Counted from the first letter of the stretch, positions 2,121 to 18,928 are shown. The stretch: DNA of 46,823 nucleotides from Lachnospiraceae bacterium (GCA_051888725.1 JBJFCA010000163.1:1-46823), one strand, 5' to 3'. The notes: generated by a model not told the origin, from the sequence alone. Numbers and translations: made by a program.

Positions 2121-4514
2121 CTAAAGGGATTTTGTTTGTTTTATCTTAGGCATGAGCAACACCAAAACGAAAAACAGGGCAAAGCCTGTAGGGATATAAG
2201 GCAGCATGACCCATTCCACAAGTCCGCAGACTCCAAAGGTACCAATTACCGCTACCGGTATGATGCCTGCTTTTTCCCCCCGGTGCTTTGCATAGTAGAG
2301 TATACTTCTGATAGCGAATACCACACAGAAAATCAGAAAATAAATACCCGCACCGATTCCGAAATCATATGCTACCTGAATATACGCATTGTGTGCATGG
2401 GCAATCATCTTCCCGTTATCTCCCGGAATCGCTACATCTTTATGCCCCTTCCAGTCTAAGAGAGAAAGATATTTTTTATAAATATCCATGCGGCCGTTGG
2501 AATAATCCACATTGCCGCCAATTCCTTCCTTTTCTTCCGTCAGTTCCGGTGAGGCATATGCTTTATTGCCTTCCTGCTCTTCCCCGGTCTGCGTTACTGC
2601 ATCGGACTGCCCCTTGTCATAATAGGTTAGTTTGGCATCAAATACTGCAAGAAATTTCCTTACTGTAATGTAACGGAAGGAATCCCATTCCTCTCCTTCT
2701 TTGATGGAATCCTGAAACCATTCTATCTCAAATGTCTGTGGTTTGTTATACACAGCAGGGATAATCCGGCAAGCCGTAAAGGTGCTTACAAAAAAGCCAG
2801 ATATCATGAGCAGCAAAAGGCCCGCCCGGCACATAGTCCGGACGATTCCATCCTTAAACTCAGTAAATGCCGTTACCAGCACCAGTAATACACACAAAAT
2901 TGCTGCTGCGTAAAGTCCCGTACGGGAAGCGGTAAGCAGCATAAATCCCGCTGAAAGACCAAATATCCATATTTCCTTCAGACACAGGGACAGTTTCCTG
3001 TTCTTTGCATATTTCACCAGAAAAACCGCAAGTGCAAGAACCATTACAAAACAGTCATATACTGCTGCAGAAGTTACCGTATGAAAAACACCCGGATATC
3101 TGGTATGGGTATAAAAATGAAACGGTCTGTGTAACCAGGCATAAATACTGATGCCGATAAAATGAATAAACACACCATTGACAAAACTCGTCAGGTATTT
3201 CTCCCTGCTGCCTCTTTGGTCAATCACCCTGAAAGCAAACAATGTCCAAAGTATCAGCAATAGAATGGGCCATTCTTTTCCGTTTCTGCTTCTCACAAAT
3301 TCTGTCAGAAGAAGTAACAGCATAACACTGTAAACAGGAGAAATTTCCTTCCAGAATTGTCTTTTGTTTTTTATATTCAGTATCAGATTATGGATTACAT
3401 TTATTACAATCATGCCCCATAAACTATAAGCCACAGCAGTGCCTCTGGAAACGACCAGGCTTTCTTCACCTGCTGCATGCTGCATACAATACCAGATACT
3501 CACTCCTGTAGCAATCGCCACATAAACCGGCTGATATACATTGAATAATTCTTTTTTTGTAAAACTGCACAAAATCGCCAGGGCAAAGCATGCAAGTGTC
3601 AGATTGCTTGCTGTCTTCTGATCAAAGTTGGACAGTGCATTCAGATATCGGACACAGCCTAACATGACGCCTGCAAAGCAAACTGACTGTAAAATACCGG
3701 GAAGTTTTGCAGTGCATTCCTCAAAAGTAATCGTTTTTTCTTCCGTCTCAGGTCTTTTTCGCAGTAAACAGTACAAAGAAAAGAGCAGAAACAACAGAAT
3801 TCCCACTTCATAAAAAATGATATCCACTGTTTCCGTTGCCAGCCTTCTTGCCGGAAACACATTATATGCTGCAAATACAGATCCTGCGACTACAAGAATT
3901 GCCGCAGGCAGACGCCAAAGCATATCCAGACCGACCTTACTCTCTTTTCTCCTGCGGAAAAACAGTTCTGTAAGACCTGCCAGTATCATGCAGACAACAA
4001 GTATCAGGCCCCCGATAAAAAGATATTGTTTCGGAGTAAAAAACACTCTGTATCCATAAAGAACATCCATATTGATGCCGTCTTTCATGGAAATCAACAG
4101 CTCATTGCCCGGACTTTCAACAGAAAAATAGTAAACCTCTCCCCCCTTCCATTCCCCACGCATGGGAATGGTAAACATTCCGGGTACATTATCTTCTGTC
4201 AATATAATCCGGCTATATTCCAGCTTGTTCAGATTGGCATCAAACAATCGAAAATAAAGGGGGGTTCCCTCTATATCCTCTGAATTTTCATTATATACAT
4301 AAAAGCTTATGGAGCGCAGGCAATCGTTGACCGGAATAAACTGTTGCAGAATCGTACCTTCGCTCACCACAATAGCGTCCGAATCCTCGCCTGCCTCTCC
4401 CAGATATTGCCATGGACGTATCAGCTTTAACGGCCAGACAGAGAGTATTGTCAGGAAAGATAGGAGCAGTATGGTTGCCTGAATGACTCTTTTTATTGTA
4501 ATTTTGTTTTTCAA
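2121..4514 (-). CDS. Large polytopic membrane protein with C-terminal O-antigen ligase/Wzy_C-like domain
   Basis: 797 aa, TTG start. Many hydrophobic segments. LTASRTG, SNGRMDIY and HAHNAYIQVAYDFGIG match the ligase-type SR...R...HN signature. Confidence 0.7.
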   Translation of the reverse strand: MKNKITIKRVIQATILLLSFLTILSVWPLKLIRPWQYLGEAGEDSDAIVVSEGTILQQFIPVNDCLRSISFYVYNENSEDIEGTPLYFRLFDANLNKLEYSRIILTEDNVPGMFTIPMRGEWKGGEVYYFSVESPGNELLISMKDGINMDVLYGYRVFFTPKQYLFIGGLILVVCMILAGLTELFFRRRKESKVGLDMLWRLPAAILVVAGSVFAAYNVFPARRLATETVDIIFYEVGILLFLLFSLYCLLRKRPETEEKTITFEECTAKLPGILQSVCFAGVMLGCVRYLNALSNFDQKTASNLTLACFALAILCSFTKKELFNVYQPVYVAIATGVSIWYCMQHAAGEESLVVSRGTAVAYSLWGMIVINVIHNLILNIKNKRQFWKEISPVYSVMLLLLLTEFVRSRNGKEWPILLLILWTLFAFRVIDQRGSREKYLTSFVNGVFIHFIGISIYAWLHRPFHFYTHTRYPGVFHTVTSAAVYDCFVMVLALAVFLVKYAKNRKLSLCLKEIWIFGLSAGFMLLTASRTGLYAAAILCVLLVLVTAFTEFKDGIVRTMCRAGLLLLMISGFFVSTFTACRIIPAVYNKPQTFEIEWFQDSIKEGEEWDSFRYITVRKFLAVFDAKLTYYDKGQSDAVTQTGEEQEGNKAYASPELTEEKEGIGGNVDYSNGRMDIYKKYLSLLDWKGHKDVAIPGDNGKMIAHAHNAYIQVAYDFGIGAGIYFLIFCVVFAIRSILYYAKHRGEKAGIIPVAVIGTFGVCGLVEWVMLPYIPTGFALFFVLVLLMPKIKQTKSL

Positions 4515-4643: not shown

Positions 4644-5396
4644 CTACTTATCCCCACCTGTCAGATTTAAATTTACACCGTTCATATACCCACACTCTTC
4701 CGACAACAAAAATTCAATGGCCGCCACAGTTTCCTCCACGTTTACATTCCGTTTCAGAGTACAGCTTTGCCTGTTCATCTCGATGATTCTCTCATCAATT
4801 TCACTTAAGAACTCTGTTTCCATCATATTGGGAGAGATGCCGTTTACGCAGATTCCCTTCTCTGCATATTCCATTGCCATACTCTTCATCAGACCGAGCA
4901 GCGCATATTTTGTCACCACATATTGTGACATGAATTTCGGCGGCATTCCCAAAGTAACGGCTGACAGCATAATCACGACCCTGCCGCTTCCTTTTTTCGC
5001 CATTTCCGGCAAAATGTGTCCGCCTATGGTAAGCAGGGAATGCACCTGCAGTTCCATATCCGCAGCAATTGCCTGCCAGTCAGCTTTCTTTAGTTTATTA
5101 TAAACTAATTTTTTAGCCGGCAGATGCACAAGGCAGTCCGGGCAGTCTCCCGCCTCTTTCATGACAGAAAGCATTCCTTTTACGTCTTCTTCTTTTGTCA
5201 AATCCGCTTTGATTGGAATAATTTCCACATTGGGCTCATTTTGTCGCAGTTCATTTAATTTTTCCCCATGGGAAGAAAAATGCGCATATATTTTCATATG
5301 TCTTCCATCATCTGTATGTCTGCCACACAAATTCTGAATCAGCTTTCTCCCTACTTCGGAAGAAGCTCCCGTAATCAGATATACCTTATTCTCCAT
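4644..5396 (-). CDS. SDR-family oxidoreductase (FabG/ketoreductase-like)
   Basis: 250 aa. LITGASSEVG Rossmann-like start, catalytic YVVTK (YxxxK), VNGISP, C-terminal YMNGVNLNLTGG. Confidence 0.85.
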   Translation of the reverse strand: MENKVYLITGASSEVGRKLIQNLCGRHTDDGRHMKIYAHFSSHGEKLNELRQNEPNVEIIPIKADLTKEEDVKGMLSVMKEAGDCPDCLVHLPAKKLVYNKLKKADWQAIAADMELQVHSLLTIGGHILPEMAKKGSGRVVIMLSAVTLGMPPKFMSQYVVTKYALLGLMKSMAMEYAEKGICVNGISPNMMETEFLSEIDERIIEMNRQSCTLKRNVNVEETVAAIEFLLSEECGYMNGVNLNLTGGDK

Positions 5397-5811
5397 CTTC
5401 CATGACTCCTATCTGCATACTGCCACGCAGTACTTTTTCCTGCTTTTGATTGGTTATGGTTACTTTTAATTTTATCACGGGGAAATGCTCGTTTTTTTCT
5501 GTCACTTCACCCTGAATCTTTAGCGTATCCCCTATAAACACCGGCTTTGCAAACTTCGTCTCCACGCTGTGAATCAGACTCTTTTCTCCCGGCAGGTATA
5601 CACCTGCAAGCGTGGATAAAAAGGATGCTGTCAGCATACCGTATGCCACCCTTCCCGGAAAGCCCTTCTTTCGGGCAAACTCCTCATCTGCATGAAGCGG
5701 ATTACAATCCCCGGTAATGGCATAAAAATGCTGCAGCATCTCTTCCGTTACCGATACGGTAAAACTCTCTGTCTGTCCTATAAAAATCTCATCAAATGCA
5801 TATTGATTCAT
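5386..5811 (-). CDS. MaoC/PaaZ-family hot-dog dehydratase
   Basis: 141 aa. Hydratase-2 motif TGDCNPLH, plus AYGML, LPG and FAKPVFIGD. Confidence 0.9.
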   Translation of the reverse strand: MNQYAFDEIFIGQTESFTVSVTEEMLQHFYAITGDCNPLHADEEFARKKGFPGRVAYGMLTASFLSTLAGVYLPGEKSLIHSVETKFAKPVFIGDTLKIQGEVTEKNEHFPVIKLKVTITNQKQEKVLRGSMQIGVMEDGE

Positions 5812-6881
5812 GGTATCTCATCTCCGTCATAAGCTGTATTCTCGACTTTGTCTAAAATGACTCTTTTCGCTTCACCGGACCGCTCCTTCCAGGTCTCATA
5901 TGCCAGATCCCAGGATGCATATTTCTCCTGCCCTCTTTTATCCGAAAGATCATAATGCTCCAACAGATACTTTTCCAGAAAATCCGTACATTTCTCTGCA
6001 CCCAGGGCATTGGCATGTCCGCCACCGTCATAAAAATCCGTAGCAAAGTCAATGCCGATTTCTTCCCGATATGCATTCATATCCAAAAACTGATAACCAT
6101 ATGACTGTACAATTTCCTGCATATAATTGCACATTTTCTGTTCATCATAAGTAAAATCCGTAGGGGAAATCACAAACAATGCCTGAAGATCATTGGCGGA
6201 TAAATACTCCAACAGTTCCCGCAATGTTTCTTCCTGTTCTTCCGGTATCGGCTTTGTTTCAGTAATACCACAAAGGTTGACTGCTTCTCCGGGTTCCACC
6301 TGTTCTTTTAACAAATATCCCTTCAGAGGGCTTTTCTTCTCATACAGGAAGGTCTTATACTGCTCCGGCAAAACCATGGTTTTCCAGTTATCGTGGTACT
6401 TGATAATATCGAAATAGTACGTATACCGTTCTGACACATCCGGTACCAGATCGTTGATGGTACGAATTCGATTACAAGAGTACTTCATGTTATCCGTAAC
6501 GCCTCTGGTATAAGCCATGTTTTCCATCATATGCTCATCCGTATAAGTAAACATTCTCATTTCAAAAATGAAAAGCTCCGGCGACTGGGTCTTAAGCGCT
6601 TCCTCCACCAGATGTATTGCTGCTTTGGGACGCTGTACATTGCTTGCTAACGGGTATGCGGTAAATCCGCATTCTCCCCACATTTTAGGCCCGGCAAAGC
6701 AGGGATAAACCGGACTGGAGCCGATCATCACCACGTCTATGGTATCATCCGGCTCTGCATAAAACCCCGTAAAAATATCCTTGATTACGCCGCCGGTGCG
6801 TACCATGTACGTAACCGGTATCAGCATGACCACAAACAGAAGACAAAAAAGAACGGATTTGAAAGCCTGTTTTTTATTCAT
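5808..6881 (-). CDS. Membrane-anchored SGNH/GDSL-like protein (DltD/AlgJ/PatB-type extracytoplasmic acyltransferase)
   Basis: 357 aa. N-terminal TM anchor, MIGSSP block-I serine and FYDGGGHANALG catalytic-His block. Directly follows an MBOAT gene. Confidence 0.75.
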   Translation of the reverse strand: MNKKQAFKSVLFCLLFVVMLIPVTYMVRTGGVIKDIFTGFYAEPDDTIDVVMIGSSPVYPCFAGPKMWGECGFTAYPLASNVQRPKAAIHLVEEALKTQSPELFIFEMRMFTYTDEHMMENMAYTRGVTDNMKYSCNRIRTINDLVPDVSERYTYYFDIIKYHDNWKTMVLPEQYKTFLYEKKSPLKGYLLKEQVEPGEAVNLCGITETKPIPEEQEETLRELLEYLSANDLQALFVISPTDFTYDEQKMCNYMQEIVQSYGYQFLDMNAYREEIGIDFATDFYDGGGHANALGAEKCTDFLEKYLLEHYDLSDKRGQEKYASWDLAYETWKERSGEAKRVILDKVENTAYDGDEIP

Positions 6882-6893
6882 TTCTTCTCCTCC

Positions 6894-8423
6894 TTAAAAG
6901 CCTCTGTAAATAAATTCCGCAGTACTGTATCCCGGTCCGTAGTACCCCAAAAGGATGACACCAAAAAGTGCCGCATAGAGAATGATCCACCTGCATACAA
7001 TGGGCATGGCTGCCAGTCTGTCACGTACGGATTTCTTTCCCTGCAAAACAGAAACCCAAAAAAGTATCAGCAACGAAGCCACTGCAATGAGCATCTCTAT
7101 GCCGTCAAGTCCCAGTGTAAGCAGACTGCCGTTTACGAAAATGTCCGGATTAAACTTAGCAAAGAGCTGTCTGTAAATATGCAGCCCCTCTGTAAAGCTG
7201 TCTGCCCTGAAGAAAACAAAGCTCGCACTTACAAGCAGGAAAGTCCTAAGCTGCTGCCAGATTCGAAACCACCGGGCAGTGTCCGTAACATGGCACCATG
7301 TTTTCATTTTTTTCCACACCGGTTCCAGGGCTTCCCCCGATACGATATAAAACCAGTGGATCAGCCCGGAGCCCATGATAAATTTCCAGGCACCGCCGTG
7401 CCACATACCCACGGCAAACCAGAGTACAAACATGGCAAGGAAGGTTGCAATTTTTTTCCCTGCTTTTTTACCGAATTTCTTTTTACAGGATGCCTGCAGA
7501 TTCGTAAACCATTTTGTCCGAAGAAGCGGATAAAACAGATAATCCTTCAGCCACGTTCCCAATGTAATGTGCCATCTTCGCCAGAATTCCTGAATGGAAC
7601 GGGAAAAAAAAGGTCTGTCAAAGTTTTCCGCCACCTTGATGCCCAATGCTTCGGAAAGGCCGATCACGATATCCATTCCGCCGGAAAAATCAGTGTAAAG
7701 CTGAAAGGCAAAGCATATGGCAGCAATGATGATATAAAACCCGCTGTAGGTAACAATGTCGCCATAAACGGTATTGACGATCACAGCCAGCCGTTCAGCA
7801 ATCACCAGCTTTTTGAAAAAACCCCACAGCATCCGCTGTAACCCATAAGTAAACTGTCTGTAATCAAACTTTTTCGGGTTGTAAAGCTCGCCCTCCACAT
7901 CCCGGTAACGTAAAATGGGACCTGAGATCATCACCGGAAAATAAAATCCAAACAATGCAAATTTAAAGAAATTGCGCTGGGGTTTTGCAATCTCATAGTA
8001 TACATCAAAAAGATATCCCAAAAGTGCCAGCGTATAAAAGGAAATGCCGAGAGGTGCCAGTATCTGTACGGTCTTTAACAGGCTGCTGCCCGGGAAAAGG
8101 CGCATGGCAACGGCATTATAGGTATAAACAGCAAAATTACAGTATTTTAACGTTGTCAGCATAAGAAGGCAGAAAACGACAACAAGTGAAAGGGCAATTT
8201 TTTTCTTTTTCTGCTCTTTCACTCTATCAATATACAAGGCTGCGCCATATATAATTGTAATTGTCACGGCCGGATATAGAATCAGATAAGCGTTTCCGGC
8301 CGTAAAAAAATATCCGATGCTTGCCACAAGCAGAACCACCCACCGGGCTTTTCCGGGTGTGAGATAGTACACCAGAAAAAGTGCTGCCACGAAGCACAGA
8401 AAATAAAATGATGTAATCGCCAT
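6894..8423 (-). CDS. MBOAT O-acyltransferase (AlgI/DltB/PatA family)
   Basis: 509 aa. PLGISFYT, SGPILR, QLYTDFSG, ENFDRPF, FWRRWHITLG, GMWHG (catalytic His). Ends in FIYRGF. Confidence 0.95.
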   Translation of the reverse strand: MAITSFYFLCFVAALFLVYYLTPGKARWVVLLVASIGYFFTAGNAYLILYPAVTITIIYGAALYIDRVKEQKKKKIALSLVVVFCLLMLTTLKYCNFAVYTYNAVAMRLFPGSSLLKTVQILAPLGISFYTLALLGYLFDVYYEIAKPQRNFFKFALFGFYFPVMISGPILRYRDVEGELYNPKKFDYRQFTYGLQRMLWGFFKKLVIAERLAVIVNTVYGDIVTYSGFYIIIAAICFAFQLYTDFSGGMDIVIGLSEALGIKVAENFDRPFFSRSIQEFWRRWHITLGTWLKDYLFYPLLRTKWFTNLQASCKKKFGKKAGKKIATFLAMFVLWFAVGMWHGGAWKFIMGSGLIHWFYIVSGEALEPVWKKMKTWCHVTDTARWFRIWQQLRTFLLVSASFVFFRADSFTEGLHIYRQLFAKFNPDIFVNGSLLTLGLDGIEMLIAVASLLILFWVSVLQGKKSVRDRLAAMPIVCRWIILYAALFGVILLGYYGPGYSTAEFIYRGF

Positions 8424-8435
8424 TGGCTGCTCCTG

Positions 8436-8672
8436 TTATTTCTGCAAAATAATGTCTACCATTTCACCCACGTTCTTCATGGTGACTACCTGTCCCATGG
8501 TAAACTTAAACCCAAATTCCTGCTCTACCGCAGCCACCAGATTAATGTGCTCTAAGGAATCCCAGTCCTCAATATCCGCAGAGGTCGTCGTTTCGTTTAC
8601 GGTAATATCCTCATCATCAAACACGTCCTGAAATACTTTATTCAGTCGTTCAAACACTTCTTCTCTTGTCAT
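8436..8672 (-). CDS. Acyl carrier protein
   Basis: Acidic ~78 aa protein with WDSLEHI phosphopantetheine-attachment motif. Start set to MTREEV (ATG at 8672, purine-rich RBS). Confidence 0.9.
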   Translation of the reverse strand: MTREEVFERLNKVFQDVFDDEDITVNETTTSADIEDWDSLEHINLVAAVEQEFGFKFTMGQVVTMKNVGEMVDIILQK

Positions 8673-8708
8673 GCTTCTTTCCTCTTTCCTGTTCTCCATT
8701 CCAGCCGG

Positions 8709-10490
8709 TTACTCTTCTACCGCAATGAAATGATTTTTTTTCTCATACTGTGCGGGAATTTCGAATTCCCATACGGCATTGCCTGCTTCGTCCCTATTCT
8801 GCAAGGAAAATCCCTGCAATCCGTAAAAATTCTCTACCATTTTGTTCTTGGCAGTGGGATAATAATATCCCCGTATTTTGCGAATGCCGCAGGCTTTGCA
8901 CTTTTCCACCAGACAATCCATCATGGCATATTCCATATCTCGCTTTAATACCCTGCAGCTCATCAGCCAGAGATCCACATGCAGCGTGTCCTGCTCCTTA
9001 CGCCCGATAACCACTGAGACAACACCGTTATCCCCGAATTTATCGGTCAGCCTGCCATATAAAGTGATATAGGATGCATCTTTTGCAATCTCTTCAATCT
9101 CTGCCTGACTAAACCGTCTGGTGGTCAGGTTAAACTGGTTACTCTTATTGGTAAGCTGGGCGATCCGCGCCATGTATAAGGGGGTAAATGCCCTGATTTC
9201 AGCACTCATCTGAAGGGATTTTAAGTATTCGCCATAATCGGTAAAGCTTTCCTTCAGTTTATCCCGTTCCTGATTGGCTTTGTACATTTCATTTCTTCTG
9301 GTATCGTCCTCTGAAAGGGAAGTTACTTCAAAAAAGCCGGACCGGTCTATCAGCTTCACATACTCTTCCGGCTTTTCTACCCGGGGTACCGCTACCCTGG
9401 GGAGGCTCTGCCTTATGATCTCCTGCTCTGCCGGATTATCATCCACAAACACCAGACTGTCCGGCCCGATATTTAATTCCGATGCAATCTGTGCCACGCT
9501 TTTACTCTTGGGCTCCCAGTTTGCTTTTATAATTACAAAGTCCTCAGGCTTTAGCACGCCATCCGGTCTGTTTAAGCCTGCCAGTGCATTCTCTTCTTCA
9601 TTTTTGGAACTCACATTCAGCATAATGCCGATCTTTTTCTGTTCCTTAAGGTAAGTCTGGAACTCTGCATAGACCTGCCCCATAGAGGTTTCCTGACCGA
9701 TTTCGATATTTTCCGGTCCATCATCCCCTACGACACCACCCCAGAGGGTATTGTCAAGATCCAGTACCAAAGCTTTTTTATTCTTCCCGTAAACAGACTT
9801 TATGATATTGGCAAGGTTAAAGGCAAGAGTGGGAATGGCAGGCACGCAAAGTGCGTACTTGTACATATGCCAGTAAAAAGAATCTCCCCACTTATCAAGC
9901 CCGTAGCAGGCTGACAGATACTGGATATCCTGCAGATAAAAATTCTCCTGCCCGGCTGCATAATCCGCAAACATGGCATTCAGACGATTGATAAAATAAA
10001 CCCGTCCGCTGTGATTCACCGCATCCTGGTTTCCAAGAAGTCTGTAATAAGGAAACTCGAAATTATTCTGGATAATGGGACAGTGATAGGTCTTTCCAAG
10101 CTGCTCCCACATCATATGAAAATGTTCAAAAGTCTCCTTCAGAAGATGCTCTGTCTGCTCCTTTGCATCTCCCGGCTCCGGATATGTCATAATATTACGG
10201 TTACTGGTATGAATATAAATCAAATCAGGCGCAAAGTCCTTTAACACCTCATTTTCAAACATGGCATCCTGCCAGTACTGCCCGTATTCCGATTCATAAA
10301 ATTCCGGTTCGATCCCATAATTTAAAAGAAACAGTTCCAGTACCTTGATAATGTCATGGGTTGTGCTGCCGCCTAAAACCGCAATTTTCTTTCTGATTCT
10401 GCTTTCCCCGTCCGAAAGAAGTGTTTTCTTAATACTCTTGGCCTTTTTTAAGATCCACTCACTGTCAAAGGGATATTCCAGTTCCTGCAT
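8709..10490 (-). CDS. FkbH-like HAD-IIIC phosphatase / glyceryl-ACP transferase with N-terminal extension
   Basis: VLDLDNTLWGG (DxDxT), SSKN, FVDDNPAE, QLTNKSNQFNLTT, DKFGDNG and LMSCRV (acyl-accepting Cys). Start set to MQELEY at 10490 behind GAGGAG. Confidence 0.92.
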   Translation of the reverse strand: MQELEYPFDSEWILKKAKSIKKTLLSDGESRIRKKIAVLGGSTTHDIIKVLELFLLNYGIEPEFYESEYGQYWQDAMFENEVLKDFAPDLIYIHTSNRNIMTYPEPGDAKEQTEHLLKETFEHFHMMWEQLGKTYHCPIIQNNFEFPYYRLLGNQDAVNHSGRVYFINRLNAMFADYAAGQENFYLQDIQYLSACYGLDKWGDSFYWHMYKYALCVPAIPTLAFNLANIIKSVYGKNKKALVLDLDNTLWGGVVGDDGPENIEIGQETSMGQVYAEFQTYLKEQKKIGIMLNVSSKNEEENALAGLNRPDGVLKPEDFVIIKANWEPKSKSVAQIASELNIGPDSLVFVDDNPAEQEIIRQSLPRVAVPRVEKPEEYVKLIDRSGFFEVTSLSEDDTRRNEMYKANQERDKLKESFTDYGEYLKSLQMSAEIRAFTPLYMARIAQLTNKSNQFNLTTRRFSQAEIEEIAKDASYITLYGRLTDKFGDNGVVSVVIGRKEQDTLHVDLWLMSCRVLKRDMEYAMMDCLVEKCKACGIRKIRGYYYPTAKNKMVENFYGLQGFSLQNRDEAGNAVWEFEIPAQYEKKNHFIAVEE

Positions 10491-10517: not shown

Positions 10518-10546
10518 ATCATACCATACGCACCGGATTCCATCAA
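10518..10546 (-). promoter_or_regulatory. Putative sigma-A promoter of the FkbH-ACP-MBOAT cassette
   Basis: Minus strand TTGATG-N17-TATGAT with extended -10 (TGG-TATGAT). The -35 overlaps the upstream GT2 stop codon. Confidence 0.6.
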
Positions 10547-11478
10547 CTGTCCCTGCCCACAATCTCCTTCACCACATATTGTGGCGAATTGTTCATGCAG
10601 ACGTAGATTCTGCCGATGTACTCACCGATCATACCCATCATAAGCATGAGCATGCCACCGATAAACATGATGGCCGACATCAGGGAACTAAAGCCTACCG
10701 GCACTGCCGGATTTACAAATTTCTTGATGACGGTATAAATGGCGTAAAGAAATCCTAAGCCTGCACAAATCGTTCCTGCCATGGTTGCAAACCGAAGCGG
10801 CTTTACGGAAAACGAAGTAAAGCCATTAACCCAGAGAGCCAGAAGCTTACTGAAATTATATCCGGAGGTACCGATTTCCCGCTCCCTGTGTGTTACATCT
10901 ACATTGATAATGTTCTTGGTGCTGCGAAGCACCAGACCAATCACATAAGGAAATGCATTGGTGTAGCGAAGCACCTCATCGATTACAAACCTTCTTGCCA
11001 CAAAGTAGCTGGATACATATAAATCCTTTGGTTTCCCCAACATGACTCTCGTCATCAGTTCGTTAATCTTACTGCCAAAGTTACGGAACCAGGAATGTTG
11101 TTTATGGGCATATCTGGCATACACCACATCCGCACCATCTTCTATACCGGCAAGCAGCTTTCCGACTTCGTCTGCCGGTGTCTGCCCATCATCATCCAGA
11201 CATACCACCAGATCTCCCTTTGACTGGGCAAATCCCGCCATCAGCGCTGCATGCTGTCCGAAGTTTTTGGAAAGATTGACACCTTTTATTCTGCCGTCCT
11301 TCTCACAGATGTTGCGAATCACTCCGAAGGTATCATCCGGGGAACAGTCATTGACCAGTATCACTTCATACTCATAAGAAGTAAGACCTGCCATGGCATC
11401 GGTGATCTCTTTGACCACACCTTCTATTGTAAGCGCTGATTTGTAACAGGGAATAACAAAACTGACTAACTGCGACAT
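10543..11478 (-). CDS. GT2 polyprenyl-phosphate glycosyltransferase (ArnC/GtrB/DPM-synthase-like)
   Basis: VIPCY, VNDCSPD, SKNFGQHAAL, LDDDGQ, two C-terminal TMs and GEYIGRIY. Start set to MSQLVSF at 11478 behind AAGGAG. Confidence 0.9.
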   Translation of the reverse strand: MSQLVSFVIPCYKSALTIEGVVKEITDAMAGLTSYEYEVILVNDCSPDDTFGVIRNICEKDGRIKGVNLSKNFGQHAALMAGFAQSKGDLVVCLDDDGQTPADEVGKLLAGIEDGADVVYARYAHKQHSWFRNFGSKINELMTRVMLGKPKDLYVSSYFVARRFVIDEVLRYTNAFPYVIGLVLRSTKNIINVDVTHREREIGTSGYNFSKLLALWVNGFTSFSVKPLRFATMAGTICAGLGFLYAIYTVIKKFVNPAVPVGFSSLMSAIMFIGGMLMLMMGMIGEYIGRIYVCMNNSPQYVVKEIVGRDS

Positions 11479-11507
11479 TTTTATACTAACTCCTTTCACA
11501 GTCTGTT

Positions 11508-13286
11508 CTATGAGGCCGGCTGTACCTGATATATACTGAAGACTTCCTGTCCCTCTGCATATACACTGTCTACTTTTTTCAGTTTGACAGCGTAATTCTG
11601 ATCGGCATAAAAAGCAGGCAGCCATTCTTCCAGCAGCGGATATCCGGAAAGCTCCGGTGATTTCACCACAATATAAACATCTTCCGTTAACAGGGCTTCC
11701 TGCATGGAAGAAAATCCAAACTTTTCATATTTTTCCCTTGTTAAAGGACTTTTATCTGCCCAGCCGCCCATAATATCAAGATTGGAGAGGCCGGCAGGAG
11801 AGGCTGTCAGCATTTTTTCCGAATACGCCACACTGGAATATACATCCCAGAAATAAAAACTGTCTTTTCGTTCCTTAACATATTCCTGCAGTGACAGGTA
11901 CGCCTGATTAACCTGCTCTCTGCGTGCAAACTCCTGTCCGGTTTTCGTAATGCCGGCTCCTGCATATAAAAAACAGATTATCAGCATAGCCAGTGCCGAG
12001 CCACAGGAAAGGATTGTCACGATTTTTTTCCGCGGCTGTTTGTGACATTCTGTAAGAAGTATGGCAAGCAGAATCAAACATTCCATCAGATAAAGGGAAT
12101 GGGTAATTCTCACAGGGCTTCTGCCCCGGTACAGAATAAAAAGCCACAGTCCGCTACGTACTGCAAAGAGAAAAGGCAGCTCCCAAAGGATATGCCAGTT
12201 TTTGTTGCAAAGCGCTGCTGCAAACACCAGCACATACAAAGTAATCGCCACTAAATTCCAGGGGCGGTCCGTTTCATACAAAAGGCGATATTTTAATTCC
12301 CATACAGCCTGCTTCAGTTTTGCCGTAAAAGAAGGCTGTACCCCTTTTTTTAATTCTGCGGCATAAGCAGCCACCTGACCCAGTACGTCAGCATTGATCT
12401 CTTCATCCAGGCCAAAATTATAATTGACAAGAAGGGTCTGTTCACTTTTGGTCAATCCTATACTTTCATAAAAGGCCTCATTTCCATCATAAGAAGGTAT
12501 ATACTGAAAATCATACAATTCTGTTCTGTTATCAAAGAATCGGTTAAATTCCTTCCACTGCTCGCTGCCATAGGCCAGTATATGCACGCCCTGACTTACG
12601 ATCATCCCTGCAAGAATCAGTCCAAACACCGAAAAATACTTCTGAAAATTTAGTTTTGTGAAAACAGGGGTTTCCCTTACCCAGCGGCACACTCCCGTTA
12701 CACAGATGAACGGCAGCAGCATCAAAAGGAGTTCCGTCCGCATCTGATACGCCAGAATAACCAGAACAATGCTGATTGTATTGTTTCTTAAAAACCCTTT
12801 CAACGTAGATGCGGGAGCTGAAGTAAAAAACAAAAATGCAGCCGTGGAAGCAAGCAGTGCCGCCGTAACGGTATACTGCACAAATACCAGATCCGATAAA
12901 AACAGCGTAATCAGAAGACCTGCTTCTATTACCAGCTGGACTGCCTTCTTCCATCTTTTGTCATAAAAACTTAAAAATCTTTCTGTTAGCAGATAGAGGC
13001 ATCCATACTGGCAAAGCAGAAAGAAAATCCCATACCAGGGAATATTTCTGCCAATGTGGTATAACAGGCTTAAGAAAAAGCTCAGCGGATAAAGCATCTG
13101 GATATTATGACCGGACGGAGTCCCTGTATAAATTCCCGCCACGATGTCTTTCATCAGCATATCGTCATTTAAGTCATAATAATAATCAAAAAAAGTGGCT
13201 GTGACGACGCAGAAAAGAGAAGAAAACAGAAATGCCCATATGCAGTTTTTCTTGTTCTTCAGTATCGTCTTGAAATCCGTTTTCAT
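11508..13286 (-). CDS. Polytopic membrane protein, possible GT-C fold glycosyltransferase
   Basis: 592 aa with about 11-12 hydrophobic segments. Acidic DLNDD motif after TM1. Adjacent to a polyprenyl-P GT2. Confidence 0.55.
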   Translation of the reverse strand: MKTDFKTILKNKKNCIWAFLFSSLFCVVTATFFDYYYDLNDDMLMKDIVAGIYTGTPSGHNIQMLYPLSFFLSLLYHIGRNIPWYGIFFLLCQYGCLYLLTERFLSFYDKRWKKAVQLVIEAGLLITLFLSDLVFVQYTVTAALLASTAAFLFFTSAPASTLKGFLRNNTISIVLVILAYQMRTELLLMLLPFICVTGVCRWVRETPVFTKLNFQKYFSVFGLILAGMIVSQGVHILAYGSEQWKEFNRFFDNRTELYDFQYIPSYDGNEAFYESIGLTKSEQTLLVNYNFGLDEEINADVLGQVAAYAAELKKGVQPSFTAKLKQAVWELKYRLLYETDRPWNLVAITLYVLVFAAALCNKNWHILWELPFLFAVRSGLWLFILYRGRSPVRITHSLYLMECLILLAILLTECHKQPRKKIVTILSCGSALAMLIICFLYAGAGITKTGQEFARREQVNQAYLSLQEYVKERKDSFYFWDVYSSVAYSEKMLTASPAGLSNLDIMGGWADKSPLTREKYEKFGFSSMQEALLTEDVYIVVKSPELSGYPLLEEWLPAFYADQNYAVKLKKVDSVYAEGQEVFSIYQVQPAS

Positions 13287-14479
13287 TATTTTCTGTAAAA
13301 CTCCACAATCTTCTTCACCGCATGGATAACATCTTCCACGTCTCTGTCTGTCAGGGAATAATATAACGGCAGGCTCATGATTTCCTCATAAAGCTTTTCT
13401 GCCTTGGGGCAAAGCCCCTTTTCATATCCCATCTCTTCATAGTAAGGATGTCTGTACACCGGAATGTAATGTACATTACAGCAGATATTTTCCGCTGACA
13501 TGGCATCAAAAAACTGTCTCCGGTTAATGGTAAGCTTCTCCGGTTTGATCCTTAAAATATACAGATGTCTCGTGGTATCCGACTCCGGTATCTCTTCCTG
13601 TACTGTTACCTCCGGTATCTTTGCAAATGCCTCATTGTATTTTTGTACGATCTCTTTTCTTCTCTTTTGGAACACAGGCAGTTTATTCAGCTGGCTTATG
13701 ATCAGTGCTGCCTGTATGTCCGTCATACGGTAATTCATACCGAGAGCAATCTGCTCATAATACCAGGGACCTTCGCTCTCCCGCTTCAAAAGATCCTGCT
13801 TTCTGGTAATGCCGTGTGAACGGTACAAAAGAAGCTTCTCATAGTATTCCCTGCTGTTCGTTAATACCGCACCGCCTTCCCCGCCGGTTACCGTCTTCAC
13901 CGGATGAAAACTGAAAGTGGTCATATCCGCTATGGAACCTACCTGCTTTCCGTTATATCCGGTGCCAATGGAGTGTGCACCATCTTCGATCAACACCAGT
14001 CCCTTTTCCCTGCATAAGGTCGTAAGCCTGTCCAGTTCCACAGCCTGTCCGGTGAAATCTACCGCAACAACTGCTTTGGTGTGCTCCGTAATACATGCCT
14101 CCACGCACGCCGGATCAATATTGTAGGTCTTTTCATTAATGTCCGCAAAAACAGGTCTGGCGCCGCAATACAGAGCACAGTTTGCAGATGCGGCAAATGT
14201 GATGGGAGTGGTAATGACTTCGTCTCCCTCTCCAACGCCTGCTGCCTGACAGGCAATGTGAAGTGCCGCCGTACCATTGCTGCATACCACGGCATAAGAA
14301 GCCCCTGTCAGTTCGCACAGTTTCTTTTCCAGTTCTTCTATTTTGGGTCCGCAGGTAAGGAAATCACTTCTAAGAACCTCCTCTACTGCCTGAATGTCTG
14401 CTTCATCTATATATTGATGTCCGTAAAAAAGCTTTGTATTCCTGACGGGAGTTCCTCCGTCAATTGCCGGTTTTTCCAT
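13286..14479 (-). CDS. pseC: UDP-4-amino-4,6-dideoxy-N-acetyl-beta-L-altrosamine transaminase
   Basis: YGHQYID..DI..V..VL.SDFLT.GP, NGTAALH, EDGAHSIG, FSFHPVKTVTGGEGG, NVHYIPVY. Start set to MEKPA at 14479. Clustered with pseG/I/F. Confidence 0.88.
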   Translation of the reverse strand: MEKPAIDGGTPVRNTKLFYGHQYIDEADIQAVEEVLRSDFLTCGPKIEELEKKLCELTGASYAVVCSNGTAALHIACQAAGVGEGDEVITTPITFAASANCALYCGARPVFADINEKTYNIDPACVEACITEHTKAVVAVDFTGQAVELDRLTTLCREKGLVLIEDGAHSIGTGYNGKQVGSIADMTTFSFHPVKTVTGGEGGAVLTNSREYYEKLLLYRSHGITRKQDLLKRESEGPWYYEQIALGMNYRMTDIQAALIISQLNKLPVFQKRRKEIVQKYNEAFAKIPEVTVQEEIPESDTTRHLYILRIKPEKLTINRRQFFDAMSAENICCNVHYIPVYRHPYYEEMGYEKGLCPKAEKLYEEIMSLPLYYSLTDRDVEDVIHAVKKIVEFYRK

Positions 14480-14557
14480 GCTATCAAATCCTTTCCGTAA
14501 CCTTCTGATGCAATCCTTCTCCTTTTGGAAAAAGTTTATCACAAGCCCCCTGTTCTT

Positions 14558-15595
14558 TCAAGAAAGAATCGCATCCGCGATTCTCTCGGCGCCCCGCCCG
14601 TCTACAAGGGTACGTGCCTTGCTGCTGTAAGCCATACGCTTTTCCCTGTCCCCGCAAAGCTGCCCCAGTATCCGGATCACTGCCGGAGCCAGTTTCTCTT
14701 TATCCACAAGGTAGTTGCCGCCACCTGCGGCATACTGAAGCCTTAAGAAAGACTCCACGATCCTTTCCTGATTGGCTGCAAAAGAAAACGTGATCGTGGG
14801 CACCCCTACGGCACATAATTCATACATGGTGGAGCCGCCGGCACTGATTGCCACATCACACTGCCGCATCAATTCCGCCATATTGGTTACGTTGCTGTGA
14901 ATCCGGATATTTCCGTGTGCTGCTGCCAGCGCCTGCAGGCTGTCACGATGGGGGTTCAGACTGCCGCAGATTACATGGTAAATTTTATTCTTTGTTTCCT
15001 CCTGCCGCAGGGCTTCCTCTAAAAATTGTCCTGCAAGATTGTAACTGTCGCTTCCGCCGGTAGAGATGAGGATCTGCTCTGCCCTGTCCTTAACGGTATA
15101 AGGTACCCCGGAAAATTCCTGCCGCAGGGGAACATAGGATGTTCCCAGGCAAAACCGTGCCGGCTGCCCGCAGGCGTCCTGACCACCTGCAAGCTTTCCG
15201 TATCCCATCTCTTTGGCATAAATATTATAATTAATCAGTAAATCTACCGGATAGGAAAAAGCAAAAATATCATCCAGGTATATCGTCCTCGTCCTCCGGC
15301 GCACCTCTCTTAAATACTCCGGTGTCACATAATAACTGTCAATCAGTATGGCAGACGGCTTAAGTGTATCAAGCAGTACCGTCAGTTTTCCTGTCTCCTC
15401 TTCCATATGGCTGTAATCCGTATGCAGCACGTGGCAGGGTATTCCTTTTCCCTGAAGCAGGGGCACTGGATTTTCATCTGCCACAAGAAAACAGACCTGC
15501 TCTCCTTTTTCACGCAGTCTGTCTGCAATGGCTGTGCATCTCATCACATGCCCCATTCCGATTTTACTGTTGGCGTCTGCCCTGATTACAATCAT
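14558..15595 (-). CDS. pseG: UDP-2,4-diacetamido-2,4,6-trideoxy-beta-L-altropyranose hydrolase
   Basis: RADANSKIGMGHVMRC, IDSY, GGSD, SAGGSTMYE, ANQ and VDGRGAERI. Confidence 0.92.
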   Translation of the reverse strand: MIVIRADANSKIGMGHVMRCTAIADRLREKGEQVCFLVADENPVPLLQGKGIPCHVLHTDYSHMEEETGKLTVLLDTLKPSAILIDSYYVTPEYLREVRRRTRTIYLDDIFAFSYPVDLLINYNIYAKEMGYGKLAGGQDACGQPARFCLGTSYVPLRQEFSGVPYTVKDRAEQILISTGGSDSYNLAGQFLEEALRQEETKNKIYHVICGSLNPHRDSLQALAAAHGNIRIHSNVTNMAELMRQCDVAISAGGSTMYELCAVGVPTITFSFAANQERIVESFLRLQYAAGGGNYLVDKEKLAPAVIRILGQLCGDREKRMAYSSKARTLVDGRGAERIADAILS

Positions 15596-15640
15596 ACTTT
15601 CTCCATTCTTCGATGCGCTTTATCCCGGGTCTTAAAAGCG

Positions 15641-17140
15641 TCAGTCCTCCTGCTTCCGGTAACAGCAAAAGCCTTCCTCCTGTATTTTCTCATAGCCCAG
15701 TTCTTCAAATAAACGACAGGAAGCAGCGTTTTTATCCTTCACCCTGGCAGTAAGCTTTTTGACGTCCGGATGGGCAGCAAGGAAAAAGGCTTCTCCCTCT
15801 TTCAGCATGGCCCTTCCGTATCCCCGTTCTCTGCAGGCTTGTGCAATGCTGTAACTGATTTCAAAAGTTTCTTCCGAAATCCGGTCGAGCCGGTACATTC
15901 CCACCGGAGTGTCTCCATGCAGACAGATATACAGGTGCCTGTCTTTATTTTGCAGTACCTCCTTCAGCCATTCCACATGTGTTTCCCAGGGAATCGGCTC
16001 TGTATGAAAGGACTGTTTTCTGGTCTCCTCTTCATTGGCCCAGTCAAACAACAGACCTGCATCCTCCATGTCTGCCTTACGAAAAGTCAGATATCCTTCC
16101 ACTGCGTCCGCAGTAAGAGGCATTCCCCGGTCAATATCCTCTCTGCATATCTTCCCTAAAACATGCGGATACTCTCTGGGATGCAGACCATAGCCCGGAC
16201 GGATGATGCGTATATTTTCCTCCGTGAAGGGCTCTCCCTTTTTGATGTCCTTTACTACAAAAACAGAGCGTCTGAATACCAGACTGTTTTTCTCCTGGAT
16301 ACTTGCTCCGTACATGGGGCTGCCCAGTGCTGCCTCTGTGTTTCTGATGGTATCCACCATTTCCTTAAATTCTGCAGGGGTCATGGAGAAGGACGAATCC
16401 GGATTTTCAATCTCCCTGCTGATACAAAAATGCTTTTCGATTACATTGGCACCCAGCGCCACCGCTGTGGCAGCTGACAAAGATCCCATGGAATGATCGG
16501 ACAGACCGACGGGGATCCCAAATTCTTTTTTCATATCCGTTATGGTCCTTAAATGCATATCTGCCGGATCCGCCGGATATGCACTGGAACACTTCAGCAG
16601 TGCCAGCTGCCGGTTTCCGGTCGCAAAAATGGTATCTACGGCTTCTCTAATTTCCCGAAGCGTCGCCATACCGGTGGACATGATGATGGGCTTCCCCTTG
16701 GATGCCACATAGGAAAGCAGGGGCAGATCCACCATTTCAAAGGATGCAATCTTGTAAAATGAAAGCCCGATATTCTCCAAAAAATCCACTGCCGTATTGT
16801 CAAAGGGTGTGGAAAGAAAATCGATACCGGTTTTTTCGGCTTCTTCCTTCAGTTCGTGCTGCCATTCCCACGGCGTGAATGCTTTGCCATAGAGCCGGTA
16901 GAGGTTCTCTCCCTCCCAGGTACCGTTGTCAATGTGAAAATAACGGTTATTGCAGTCAATCGTCAGGGTGTCCGGCGTATAGGTCTGAATTTTAATACAG
17001 TCCGCACCGCTTTCCTTCGCTGCATGGATGATTTCCTTTGCTCTCTCTAAGCTGCCCGCATGATTAGCAGACATCTCTGCAATAATATAGGCCGGCTGTC
17101 CGTCACCCACAAGCCGGTTTCCGATTCGAAACTGTTCCAT
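15641..17140 (-). CDS. pseI: Pseudaminic acid synthase fused to a C-terminal PseH-like GNAT acyltransferase
   Basis: IIAEMSANHAGS, KIQTYT, KIASFE, GLSDH, IEKH and SAF domain (RRS...IRPGYGL). Then ~150 aa FRKA...LLFDWANEE.TR..SF...I.W..H..W...RERGYG...N.AS..LFE.LG (GNAT). Confidence 0.9.
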   Translation of the reverse strand: MEQFRIGNRLVGDGQPAYIIAEMSANHAGSLERAKEIIHAAKESGADCIKIQTYTPDTLTIDCNNRYFHIDNGTWEGENLYRLYGKAFTPWEWQHELKEEAEKTGIDFLSTPFDNTAVDFLENIGLSFYKIASFEMVDLPLLSYVASKGKPIIMSTGMATLREIREAVDTIFATGNRQLALLKCSSAYPADPADMHLRTITDMKKEFGIPVGLSDHSMGSLSAATAVALGANVIEKHFCISREIENPDSSFSMTPAEFKEMVDTIRNTEAALGSPMYGASIQEKNSLVFRRSVFVVKDIKKGEPFTEENIRIIRPGYGLHPREYPHVLGKICREDIDRGMPLTADAVEGYLTFRKADMEDAGLLFDWANEEETRKQSFHTEPIPWETHVEWLKEVLQNKDRHLYICLHGDTPVGMYRLDRISEETFEISYSIAQACRERGYGRAMLKEGEAFFLAAHPDVKKLTARVKDKNAASCRLFEELGYEKIQEEGFCCYRKQED

Positions 17141-17150
17141 GATAAGCCTC

Positions 17151-17870
17151 TCATTCTGCCGCTTTCGCAGCTTTTTTCTGCATCACGCGATATTTTACCT
17201 CTGCGATTTCCCAGTCTTCCTCTGTATCAATATCCTGTACCTCTAAATCAGGAAGTTCAAAAGGAACCGTCTTCGTCATAATCAGTCTCTTCTGTTCCAG
17301 AAAATCCTTCACGCGGATAAAATAAAACTGTCCTGCGTCATGATAAAAAGGTTCTAAGTCCTGTGATCTGGTAAACATATGCTCCGGCCATTTAAAGCTT
17401 AAATAATCGCCGCATTTCACCACGCTTCTCTGTGGCGGAAAGCTGTAACGCACCACCGGGAGCAGGCTTTCCGCCTGCTTGTCCTGCATGATCTTAAAGG
17501 CGTCTGTAAGCTTCTTGGCCGTCACAAACGGCGCAGTAGGATAAAGGCAGCATGCCACATCAAATTCCTTTCCCAGCTTCCGGTACGCTTCCAGTACCTC
17601 CAGCATCACATCTGTTGTATTGGCATAATCATTCGCCGTATCCGCACTGCGGAAAAACGGCACCGCAGCCCCTGCCTCCCCGGCAATTTCCGCAATTTTT
17701 TCATCATCCGTGGAAACCATGACTTCCTCAAAGATGCCCGCACTTAACGCTGCCTGAATTGTATACGTGATGATCGGCTTTCCGCAGAATTCCCTGATGT
17801 TTTTCCCGGGAATCCGCTTACTGCCTCCTCTTGCGGTAATTACTGCTATGGTACGTATTTTTTCACTCAT
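17151..17870 (-). CDS. pseF: Pseudaminic acid cytidylyltransferase (CMP-Pse synthetase)
   Basis: ITARGGSKRIPGKNI, VSTDD, CLYPTAPF, RSQDLE..YHDAGQFY, QDIDTEEDW. Start set to MSEKIR at 17870. Confidence 0.92.
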   Translation of the reverse strand: MSEKIRTIAVITARGGSKRIPGKNIREFCGKPIITYTIQAALSAGIFEEVMVSTDDEKIAEIAGEAGAAVPFFRSADTANDYANTTDVMLEVLEAYRKLGKEFDVACCLYPTAPFVTAKKLTDAFKIMQDKQAESLLPVVRYSFPPQRSVVKCGDYLSFKWPEHMFTRSQDLEPFYHDAGQFYFIRVKDFLEQKRLIMTKTVPFELPDLEVQDIDTEEDWEIAEVKYRVMQKKAAKAAE

Positions 17871-18928
17871 TTTTTGTTCTTCCCTTTCCCCTCGGACCCG
17901 GTATTTCGTATCTTTCGGTATCCGTTCAGCAAACAGTAATACAAATAAAAACAAACCGGTGACTTCATTAACAGCCGGATCAGCTTCTGCTCTTCGGCTC
18001 CGGTCCTCTGTCTGTAATAGGAATTATCTGCAAAATCCGGCAGTGTTGCCAGCACCTTGTTCTTAAGCTCCCTCACAAAACGCAGCTTTCCTTTCATTCT
18101 GCCGCCCATACAGCCAAAAAGCGTATTCACGAAAGCAAGCTCCGTATATTTATAATCAAATTCTTCCTGAAATTCCTCATAAAAACCGTATTTTCTGCTC
18201 TTTTCCAGCAAAAGCTCCATGGCCCTGATCCGGTCATGGCATTTCTGCCCGGAAATATAGTGCACCGTGGAGGACGCATGCTGGTAATAATAATACAGGG
18301 GCTCTGCCACCCGTTCAAACCGGGTACCGTGCAGAAGCCACAGCGAAGACATACAGTTATCCTCATAAAAAATGTCCTCCGGGAACCAGAGGTCGTTCCC
18401 TGTGATGATTTCCCTGCGGTAGATCTTGACTACCATGCTGCCCGGCTGCAGGATCAGAAGCTTCTTTTTTTCATGGGTTAATACGCCTGTCTGCAGGGCT
18501 GTATTATTCTCGACCACAGTCCCGGGAGCAAAGGAATGTTCCGCCGTAAACTGGTAGTCACATCCCACGATATCCGCACCGGTTTCTTCTGCTTTCGCAA
18601 GCAGCTTTTCGAACATGTCCGGCGCAGCCCAGTCATCGCTGTCCATCATGCCGATGTACTCTCCTTTGGCCTCCCGGATCCCCCTGTTTCTGGCTCCGCC
18701 CTGATGGTGATTCTCAGGAGAGGCAATCACCTTCAGCAGCCCGGGATTTTCTTCTTTCAGTCCTGTAAGCACCGCAAGGGATTCGTCCGTGGATGCATCA
18801 TCCACCGCTATAATCTCATAAGTAATCTGCTTTTCCCTGAGGGTCTGGTGCAGAAGTGACTGTATGCAGTAAGTAAGCTTTCCGTCCGCAGCCATATTAT
18901 AGACCGGCACAATAATACTAAGCTTCAT
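17867..18928 (-). CDS. GT2 glycosyltransferase
   Basis: MKLSIIVPVYN, VDDASTD, GGARNRG, MDSDD, FYED. Start set to 18928. Confidence 0.9.
   Translation of the reverse strand: MKLSIIVPVYNMAADGKLTYCIQSLLHQTLREKQITYEIIAVDDASTDESLAVLTGLKEENPGLLKVIASPENHHQGGARNRGIREAKGEYIGMMDSDDWAAPDMFEKLLAKAEETGADIVGCDYQFTAEHSFAPGTVVENNTALQTGVLTHEKKKLLILQPGSMVVKIYRREIITGNDLWFPEDIFYEDNCMSSLWLLHGTRFERVAEPLYYYYQHASSTVHYISGQKCHDRIRAMELLLEKSRKYGFYEEFQEEFDYKYTELAFVNTLFGCMGGRMKGKLRFVRELKNKVLATLPDFADNSYYRQRTGAEEQKLIRLLMKSPVCFYLYYCLLNGYRKIRNTGSEGKGKNKK

Follow-up and report, generated by a model that had tools for sequence, protein, structure and literature searches.

A Dlt-like FkbH-ACP-MBOAT-SGNH-MaoC-SDR cassette that may acylate a surface glycan in a Lachnospiraceae bacterium

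The window analysed here is a 46,823-nucleotide (nt) stretch of DNA from a Lachnospiraceae bacterium (GCA_051888725.1 JBJFCA010000163.1:1-46823). Its minus strand carries, at 4644-10490, six intact, co-oriented open reading frames (ORFs) encoding an FkbH-type loader, an acyl carrier protein (ACP), an MBOAT acyltransferase, an SGNH-fold protein, a MaoC-type dehydratase and a short-chain reductase (SDR). The cassette is a recombination of two known chemistries, the acyl shuttle of MBOAT-SGNH pairs and the acyl donor made by FkbH. In our judgement a three-carbon acyl group derived from FkbH probably passes through the ACP, the MBOAT and the SGNH protein to a glycan, and we lean towards lactyl as the group delivered to the surface glycan.

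A note made earlier from the sequence alone (the earlier note) had described the six genes as overlapping or at most ~36 nt apart, and the measured spacings agree with this, being 36, 12, 12, -4 and -11 nt in cassette order. The catalytic motifs that it named were all present in the ORF translations (DLDNT, SCR, DSL, WHG, GSS...H, DxNPxH and YxxxK), and a purine run of the GGAG/GAGG type lies upstream of each of the six starts. Five of the six proteins exceeded curated Pfam or NCBIfam cut-offs, the exception being the 357-residue SGNH-fold protein. As the earlier note had also claimed, a Pfam scan of 40 window proteins gave neither a ketosynthase nor an AMP-binding protein. The source genome is 68% complete. 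Five of seven relatives from metagenomes, 73-94% identical, have the identical six genes in identical order; the remaining two are a relative whose SGNH gene is broken and a contig of just 1.5 kb. Because the arrangement recurs in these five relatives and, with the gene order shuffled, in 11 of 148 distant FkbH loci, it is more than chance. A promoter and terminator scan gave 30 promoter-like sites versus 23.3 +/- 5.5 in shuffled sequences and was not used as evidence.

Enzymes of the FkbH family take glycerate from 1,3-bisphosphoglycerate and load it onto ACPs. The window FkbH scored 308.6 bits against TIGR01686 (cut-off 146.65), and the aspartates of its HAD DxD and DD motifs (D244, D246, D350 and D351) and the C-terminal cysteine C512 are kept in all 56 aligned homologues. 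Its residues 18-395 match BF1531 (PDB 3slr, E 4.2e-54), the sole solved relative, itself uncharacterised. FkbH domains are described as loading unusual units onto ACPs (PMC4552970). The window ACP scored 25.2 bits against PF00550 (cut-off 20.8), with the phosphopantetheine-site serine present in 120 of 120 aligned ACPs. Around this serine the motif reads WDSLEH, the FkbH-linked type, whereas ACPs linked to AMP-ligases are of the LDSF type; the window ACP shares 69-79% identity with four FkbH-type ACPs and 10-24% with ten of the other type.

The two tailoring enzymes also retain their catalytic residues: D35, N37 and H40 of MaoC are kept in 30 of 30 aligned sequences, and Y159 and K163 of the SDR in 21 of 21. 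The closest MaoC structures are (R)-specific enoyl-CoA hydratases (5cpg, E 9.8e-20; 1iq6, E 2.6e-14). Dehydratase-ketoreductase (DH-KR) proteins turn glyceryl-S-ACP into lactyl-S-ACP in the biosynthesis of FR901464 and lankacidin (PMC4765723, a review). MaoC and SDR domains are fused in one locus beside FkbH and MBOAT (L143, 11848-13437). Two longer MaoC proteins beside FkbH (L126:793-2172 and L187:10757-12265) match MaoC only in Pfam. A seeming fusion of MaoC and SDR that closely resembles the two window proteins (P0124) was rejected as evidence, since it is one sequence only and its linker looks like a frameshift; P0123 and P0125 have the look of chimeras.

On the export side, the closest solved MBOAT relative is DltB, whose alignment spans positions 10-400 of the 503-position profile (E 6e-50). 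The window MBOAT scored 145.6 bits against the DltB equivalog TIGR04091, whose cut-off is 375, and it extends about 100 positions past the DltB C-terminus. It ends in FIYRGF, with the tyrosine at position 506, and fits the FXYXXF acyl-shuttle motif of PatA and DltX. H342 and Y506 are present in 34 of 34 aligned sequences and F509 in 32 of 34, H342 aligning to the WHG of DltB; a relaxed FXYXXF end was found in 54 of 56 full-length MBOATs from 80 GTDB loci. PatA acylates the tyrosine of this motif, a peptide of the motif, once acetylated, serves as donor to PatB, and DltX shares the motif (PMC12148441). The fused motif, which the earlier note had not named, strengthens its reading of a Dlt-like relay. 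There is no separate DltX: the 12-36 nt gaps leave no room for one, and the MBOAT's own C-terminus bears the motif instead.

The protein encoded next to the MBOAT matched no Pfam or NCBIfam family, and PF04914 (DltD) was matched by only 3 of its 108 aligned relatives. An AlphaFold model built from the 108 sequences reached a pLDDT of 95.1; a model from the single sequence (pLDDT 42.8) was discarded. VIA-align gave Z values of 12-13 to TesA, PatB and OatA-C over ~150-170 residues, so that by its predicted structure the protein has an SGNH fold. Alignment assigned a predicted triad of S56 (107 of 108 sequences), D285 (101 of 108) and H289 (108 of 108), and the sequence contains a single N-terminal hydrophobic segment. 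The SGNH label in the earlier note thus stands on the modelled fold and the conserved triad, in a protein with no family match. Beside these structure searches, the profile of alignment A2 was run against the PDB and had CgnD as its sole match (E 0.024). The MBOAT and the 357-residue protein are predicted to be a shuttle pair of the PatA/AlgI build that has no separate DltX.

The export module was also found with another loader. Twenty loci around top-scoring MBOATs were inspected, 19 of them picked for having no nearby FkbH, and seven contain an AMP-binding, DltA-like ligase. The ligase-linked MBOATs form a separate clade (10 rows, support 91), with a distinct ACP type and, in some, an Asp/Glu racemase. 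The window MBOAT falls in a clade of 10 rows (support 97) in which FkbH, an FkbH-type ACP or both always lie within 5 kb. By these alignments and trees, the export module thus comes with either of two loaders, and each loader has an ACP type of its own; no other observation speaks as strongly for a supply of the window MBOAT by the ACP and not by acetyl-CoA. It also bears out the earlier proposal that FkbH replaces DltA and the ACP replaces DltC, since the sister clade uses a DltA-like ligase and the other ACP type. The ligase-type loci (L157-L160, L162, L164 and L168) combine ligase and ACP with an MBOAT bearing a fused FIYxxF end and an SGNH protein; the racemase occurs in L159, L160 and L166, and a pyridoxal phosphate-dependent decarboxylase in L165 and L168. 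They are candidates for a Dlt-like aminoacylation system. The window's own genome contains an MBOAT copy of this ligase-linked group (L156, G000:C152), on a contig that ends before any ligase.

Linkage of the two halves was examined in other genomes. Of 300 other genomes of the family, 60 have an FkbH above cut-off, and all 68 FkbH loci of these were taken; the best 80 of 598 GTDB loci, ranked by likeness to the window FkbH, brought the set to 148. Genes were counted as neighbours when co-oriented and within 6 kb. Among the 68 family loci, 54 contained an ACP, 29 an MBOAT and 28 both; 23 had an SGNH protein in addition, and 3 the complete set of six. The GTDB set of 80 had ACP and MBOAT together in 49 loci, with SGNH in 40, and the complete six in 8. 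The co-occurrence elsewhere on which the earlier note's reading depended was therefore found, with FkbH, ACP and MBOAT together in 77 of the 148 loci.

The reverse test, starting from the other proteins, is cleaner and showed the same linkage. MBOATs occur in 173 of the 300 family genomes (up to five candidates were scored per genome), giving a list of 149 non-self matches. Among the matches listed, FkbH lies within 6 kb of 8 of the 9 MBOATs nearest to the window's, but of just 1 of the 69 at ranks 81-149. Every MBOAT at ranks 1-16 comes from an FkbH genome, as do 10 of those 69, the baseline being 60 of 300. At ranks 10-20, just 1 of 11 has an FkbH closer than 6 kb, so that the link there is at the level of the genome. 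For MaoC, matches of at least 100 bits came from FkbH genomes in 18 of 18 cases and generic MaoC proteins in 1 of 17, with the bit-score split set after the list was seen. Close SDRs were in an FkbH genome in 13 of 14 cases. MaoC and SDR are co-located in 20 loci, and independent pairs on the FkbH tree gave a median p of 0.03 (7 of 148 rows were omitted by length in the kinship-corrected tests).

Judged by record titles, cassettes with FkbH, ACP and MBOAT extend beyond Firmicutes to Methylomonas, Desulfovibrio, Acidobacteriaceae, Rhodobacteraceae and Sinorhizobium plasmids. In S. meliloti 1021 (L186, pSymB 621244-642577) and strain ml47 (L189), genes for an MBOAT, a 409-residue protein, an ACP and FkbH adjoin rkp capsule export genes. 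The 409-residue protein is annotated as a TonB receptor, L186 has a VOC match upstream, and the FkbH of strain 1021 is split into two ORFs. Alignment of the gene between MBOAT and ACP with SGNH by hhalign gave a probability of 2.7%, so that SGNH was not confirmed. Split cassettes also occur, in which an FkbH-type ACP and an MBOAT (L149, L152 and L161) are on one contig and FkbH on another (L055, L011 and L013); in genome G205, the FkbH of such a cassette has no ACP beside it. A 1338-residue open frame with an FkbH domain occupies a 4 kb contig (L023, G296:C69).

From the genes, residues, folds and linkage observed we infer the reactions of the following route, with their stereochemistry and acceptor. 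FkbH would dephosphorylate 1,3-bisphosphoglycerate and transfer D-glycerate via Cys512 to the phosphopantetheine of the ACP. By analogy with the DH-KR chemistry of FR901464 and lankacidin, MaoC would eliminate the 3-hydroxyl of glyceryl-ACP to give enol-pyruvoyl- or pyruvoyl-ACP, which the SDR would reduce to lactyl-ACP. As in PatAB and Dlt, His342 of the MBOAT would move the acyl group onto the enzyme's own C-terminal Tyr506, and Ser56 of the SGNH protein would take it up and O-acylate the exported glycan, yielding an O-lactyl glycan. The acceptor, to judge from gene position, would be the surface glycan of the locus.

Several observations weigh against this route or against lactyl as its product. 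DltD was not among 50 VIA-align rows for the SGNH model, and although it was the top Foldseek match (6pfx), that match is weak (E 1.5e-4, TM 0.38, root-mean-square deviation 14 Å). The SDR has a non-canonical GASSxxG nucleotide motif, with an enoyl-ACP reductase-like model as its best Pfam match, and the window MaoC and SDR are likened to the FR901464 and lankacidin DH-KR proteins by predicted function. Among the 77 FkbH+ACP+MBOAT loci, 36 have no nearby tailoring gene, 19 have a VOC protein, 12 have MaoC and SDR, 8 MaoC alone and 2 SDR alone. MBOAT sequence does not predict lactyl, since the nearest MBOAT relatives vary in their tailoring genes. Co-occurrence of MBOAT and SGNH gave a median p of 0.07 after kinship correction, and both locus counts lean towards the window's clade, the profiles having been built from family loci and the GTDB set chosen by FkbH likeness. 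No MBOAT lies within 6 kb in 7 of the 20 FkbH+MaoC+SDR loci, although in 5 of these the sequence breaks off less than 3 kb away on one side; in addition, FkbH-ACP occurs elsewhere beside PseH-like GNAT, AAC(3)-like or WcbI proteins. Because of these seven loci, the FkbH-ACP donor half can, as far as gene context tells, also feed non-MBOAT transferases in other genomes.

The identity of the acyl group is the part of the route most exposed to these points. The earlier note had left it between glyceryl and lactyl; since the window has MaoC and SDR, lactyl is our best guess, and these predicted activities shift the window away from glyceryl. An unlikely competitor is that the MBOAT exports glyceryl, pyruvoyl or another three-carbon group while MaoC and SDR act otherwise or on part of the pool. 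Consistent with this, the closest MBOAT (L020, 59% identity) has no MaoC, SDR or VOC nearby, 8 of the 77 loci have MaoC without an SDR, and O-linked L-glycerate is known on gellan (PMC4432689, citing Kuo 1986). On the other hand, the window MaoC and SDR genes overlap their neighbours, retain their catalytic residues, and come from subfamilies that are hardly met outside FkbH genomes.

Other genomes suggest alternative fates for glyceryl-ACP, which we infer to be left unchanged, epimerised, or dehydrated and reduced. A VOC/glyoxalase protein of ~130 residues lies beside FkbH-ACP in 34 of the 148 loci (including L021, L027, L036, L044, L113, L116, L117, L130, L145, L169 and L188). Its metal ligands H/E/H/E are kept in 31 of 31 sequences, and the best NCBIfam match is methylmalonyl-CoA epimerase, below cut-off for four of five proteins tested. 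The VOC protein is a candidate D- to L-glyceryl-ACP epimerase, giving L-glyceryl. No locus has both MaoC and VOC (0/35/34/79, Fisher p 4e-5 over the 148 loci); after kinship correction the exclusion is not significant (median p 0.06 and 0.13). Further gene sets were observed beside FkbH-ACP. Seven loci combine it with MaoC and split transketolase genes (L053, L076, L077, L082, L090, L098 and L103), L053 with an aldo-keto reductase in addition, and by MaoC plus transketolase pyruvoyl-ACP might be lengthened into a branched polyhydroxy acid. In L034 (5243-8361) and L012, FkbH and ACP adjoin a BadF-type ATPase and two 2-hydroxyacyl-CoA dehydratase subunits, possibly a radical tailoring set. Nine loci (L039, L041, L047, L052, L092, L101, L176, L178 and L179) have DUF4910 beside the ACP, in most cases together with an AAC(3)-like acetyltransferase; MaoC is often present there, a Sir2 gene occurs in L039 and L041, and FkbH is adjacent or elsewhere in the genome.

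The window also contains pseudaminic acid genes, pseF, pseI, pseG and pseC, 2.8-7.5 kb upstream of the cassette, and they raise the possibility, which we consider distinctly improbable, that the two halves are uncoupled: FkbH, ACP, MaoC and SDR would N-acylate pseudaminic acid in the cytoplasm, and MBOAT and SGNH would be an acetyl-CoA-dependent O-acetylation pair. N-glyceroyl pseudaminic acid exists, in Tannerella, its genes being reported as unidentified (PMC5378307), and, Dlt apart, MBOAT/SGNH pairs are described as users of acyl-CoA (PMC12148441). In a genome of the same genus (L004) the order is pseF-FkbH-ACP-GNAT-pseI-pseG, and in L045 pseI accompanies FkbH-ACP-MaoC-SDR, an MBOAT being absent. 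The trees point the other way: in a quick tree made without L023 and L060, the window FkbH nests among MBOAT-linked FkbHs (support 96), and a clade joining it with four Pse-type FkbHs, a group named after the first tree, was rejected (p-AU 2e-5). Moreover, pseI was found in none of the 77 other FkbH+ACP+MBOAT loci (from the DNA examined, many loci being short), 16 of the 27 genomes with homologues of the PseI-fused GNAT have no FkbH, and the MBOAT clade tracks both FkbH and the FkbH type of ACP. For exclusion of Pse genes and MBOAT, kinship correction left too few pairs (p 1). FkbH, ACP and a PseH-like GNAT do stand inside pseudaminic acid clusters in L004, L042, L061 and L008, where all but one of the four FkbHs are short proteins of a separate clade; FkbH, ACP and GNAT are candidate genes for N-glyceroyl pseudaminic acid.

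For the relay in which FkbH, ACP, MBOAT and SGNH act together, it is very unlikely that the acceptor is made elsewhere (lipid, lipoteichoic acid, peptidoglycan or glycoprotein): although several genomes have an ACP-MBOAT-SGNH unit away from glycan genes and FkbH (L149 beside addAB), and Dlt acylates lipoteichoic acid and PatAB peptidoglycan (PMC12148441), the window cassette has around it genes for glycosyltransferases, a Wzy and a PglK-like transporter as well as the ligase-like gene, and its nearest flanks are kept in close relatives.

The surroundings of the cassette are, by their predicted products, a glycan locus (Table 1). The 797-residue membrane protein beside the SDR gene had no match in the Pfam scan; its Atlas neighbours include Wzy_C, with a score of 0.99 on 12% of members, and O-antigen ligase, with a score of 0.92, and its gene adjoins the cassette in six of seven close relatives. 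For the 592-residue membrane protein on the other side, the Atlas leads are PMT_2, YfdI_N and GT87, on 21-26% of members. The pseI gene (15641-17140, minus strand) has a C-terminal PseH-like GNAT domain fused to PseI, and no pseB was above cut-off among 29 window proteins scanned with NCBIfam. The Wzy is of the EpsG type, and the locus also encodes an initiating sugar transferase.

Table 1. Predicted products of the cassette and of its flanking genes in the window.
Feature	Position	Strand	Basis
FkbH-type loader, 593 aa	8709-10490	-	TIGR01686, PF21211 FkbH_N; FkbH_N + HAD-IIIC + C-terminal Cys domain
Acyl carrier protein, 78 aa	8436-8672	-	PF00550
MBOAT acyltransferase, 509 aa	6894-8423	-	PF03062
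Membrane-anchored SGNH-fold protein, 357 aa, predicted terminal O-acyltransferase	5808-6881	-	Predicted structure, conserved residues
MaoC/PhaJ-type hotdog dehydratase, 141 aa	5386-5811	-	PF01575
Short-chain reductase (SDR), 250 aa	4644-5396	-	PF13561/PF00106
Membrane protein, 797 aa, O-antigen-ligase-like (lead only)	2121-4514	-	Atlas neighbours
ArnC/GtrB-like GT2 and 592-aa membrane protein (GT-C-like, lead only)	10543-13286	-	NF007986/NF047588, below cut-off
Pseudaminic acid genes pseF, pseI (fused GNAT), pseG, pseC	13286-17954	-	TIGR03584, TIGR03586, TIGR03590, TIGR03588, above cut-off

Acyl substituents on surface glycans govern recognition by antibodies, phages and enzymes. Glyceryl and lactyl are known polysaccharide substituents (PMC4432689), and the cassette offers candidate genes for both. 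If the relay is real, a glycolytic intermediate would be routed directly to the surface of a gut commensal, and the cassette would be a common exception to the acyl-CoA rule for non-Dlt MBOAT/SGNH pathways, as given in PMC12148441 (2025). More tentatively, FkbH-ACP may be a general glycerate hub for bacterial surface glycans with interchangeable tailoring genes and transferases. No tailoring would then give D-glyceryl, VOC L-glyceryl, MaoC and SDR lactyl, and MaoC with transketolase a branched acid, while MBOAT-SGNH would make extracellular O-esters and GNAT or AAC(3)-like proteins cytoplasmic N-amides. Such a hub would include a second carrier-protein-fed MBOAT pathway beside Dlt, spread from gut Firmicutes to Sinorhizobium, and would name genes for the L-glycerate of gellan and for N-glyceroyl pseudaminic acid. 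A literature search that covered few subscription papers found no description of the cassette and no paper on MBOAT glycan acylation fed by FkbH-ACP, in line with the earlier statement that no characterised envelope-acylation pathway with such a layout is known. Literature joining FkbH and MBOAT concerned cyanobacterial peptides only, and the FkbH papers listed were by title mostly on natural products.

Each half of the cassette has relatives among known systems. Campylobacter cj1302 is an FkbH-domain gene in a flagellar (nonulosonic acid) glycan locus (PMC7099621) and in this resembles the window FkbH, but N-acylation in such systems is cytoplasmic, and the Pse-linked FkbHs belong to another clade and stand with a GNAT instead of an MBOAT. 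The set of FkbH, ACP, dehydratase and ketoreductase corresponds in predicted function to that of the FR901464 and lankacidin lactyl starters (PMC4765723). Unlike these starters and the FkbH/OzmB loaders of polyketide pathways, the window has stand-alone proteins, no ketosynthase among the 40 proteins scanned, and a membrane acyltransferase as the predicted sink. With PatA/PatB and AlgI/AlgJ the cassette shares an MBOAT with a catalytic histidine, a fused C-terminal FXYXXF motif and an adjoining gene for an anchored SGNH protein; those systems are acyl-CoA users that 'lack a similar carrier protein' in the wording of PMC12148441, whereas the cassette has both an ACP and a loader for it.

The closest parallel is Dlt, in which the acyl group runs, as is predicted here, from a carrier protein to an MBOAT, to the FXYXXF tyrosine and to an anchored SGNH protein (PMC12148441); in the window, the carrier protein gene lies 12 nt from that of the MBOAT. 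Here FkbH precedes the ACP in place of an AMP-binding DltA, none being present among the 40 window proteins, and the ACP is of another type than the ligase-linked ACPs. The MBOAT falls below the DltB cut-off and has the shuttle motif fused to it in place of a separate DltX. Finally, the cassette has tailoring enzymes and its predicted cargo is a hydroxy acid, whereas the cargo of Dlt is an amino acid (D-alanine). The cassette would work like Dlt but is not Dlt.

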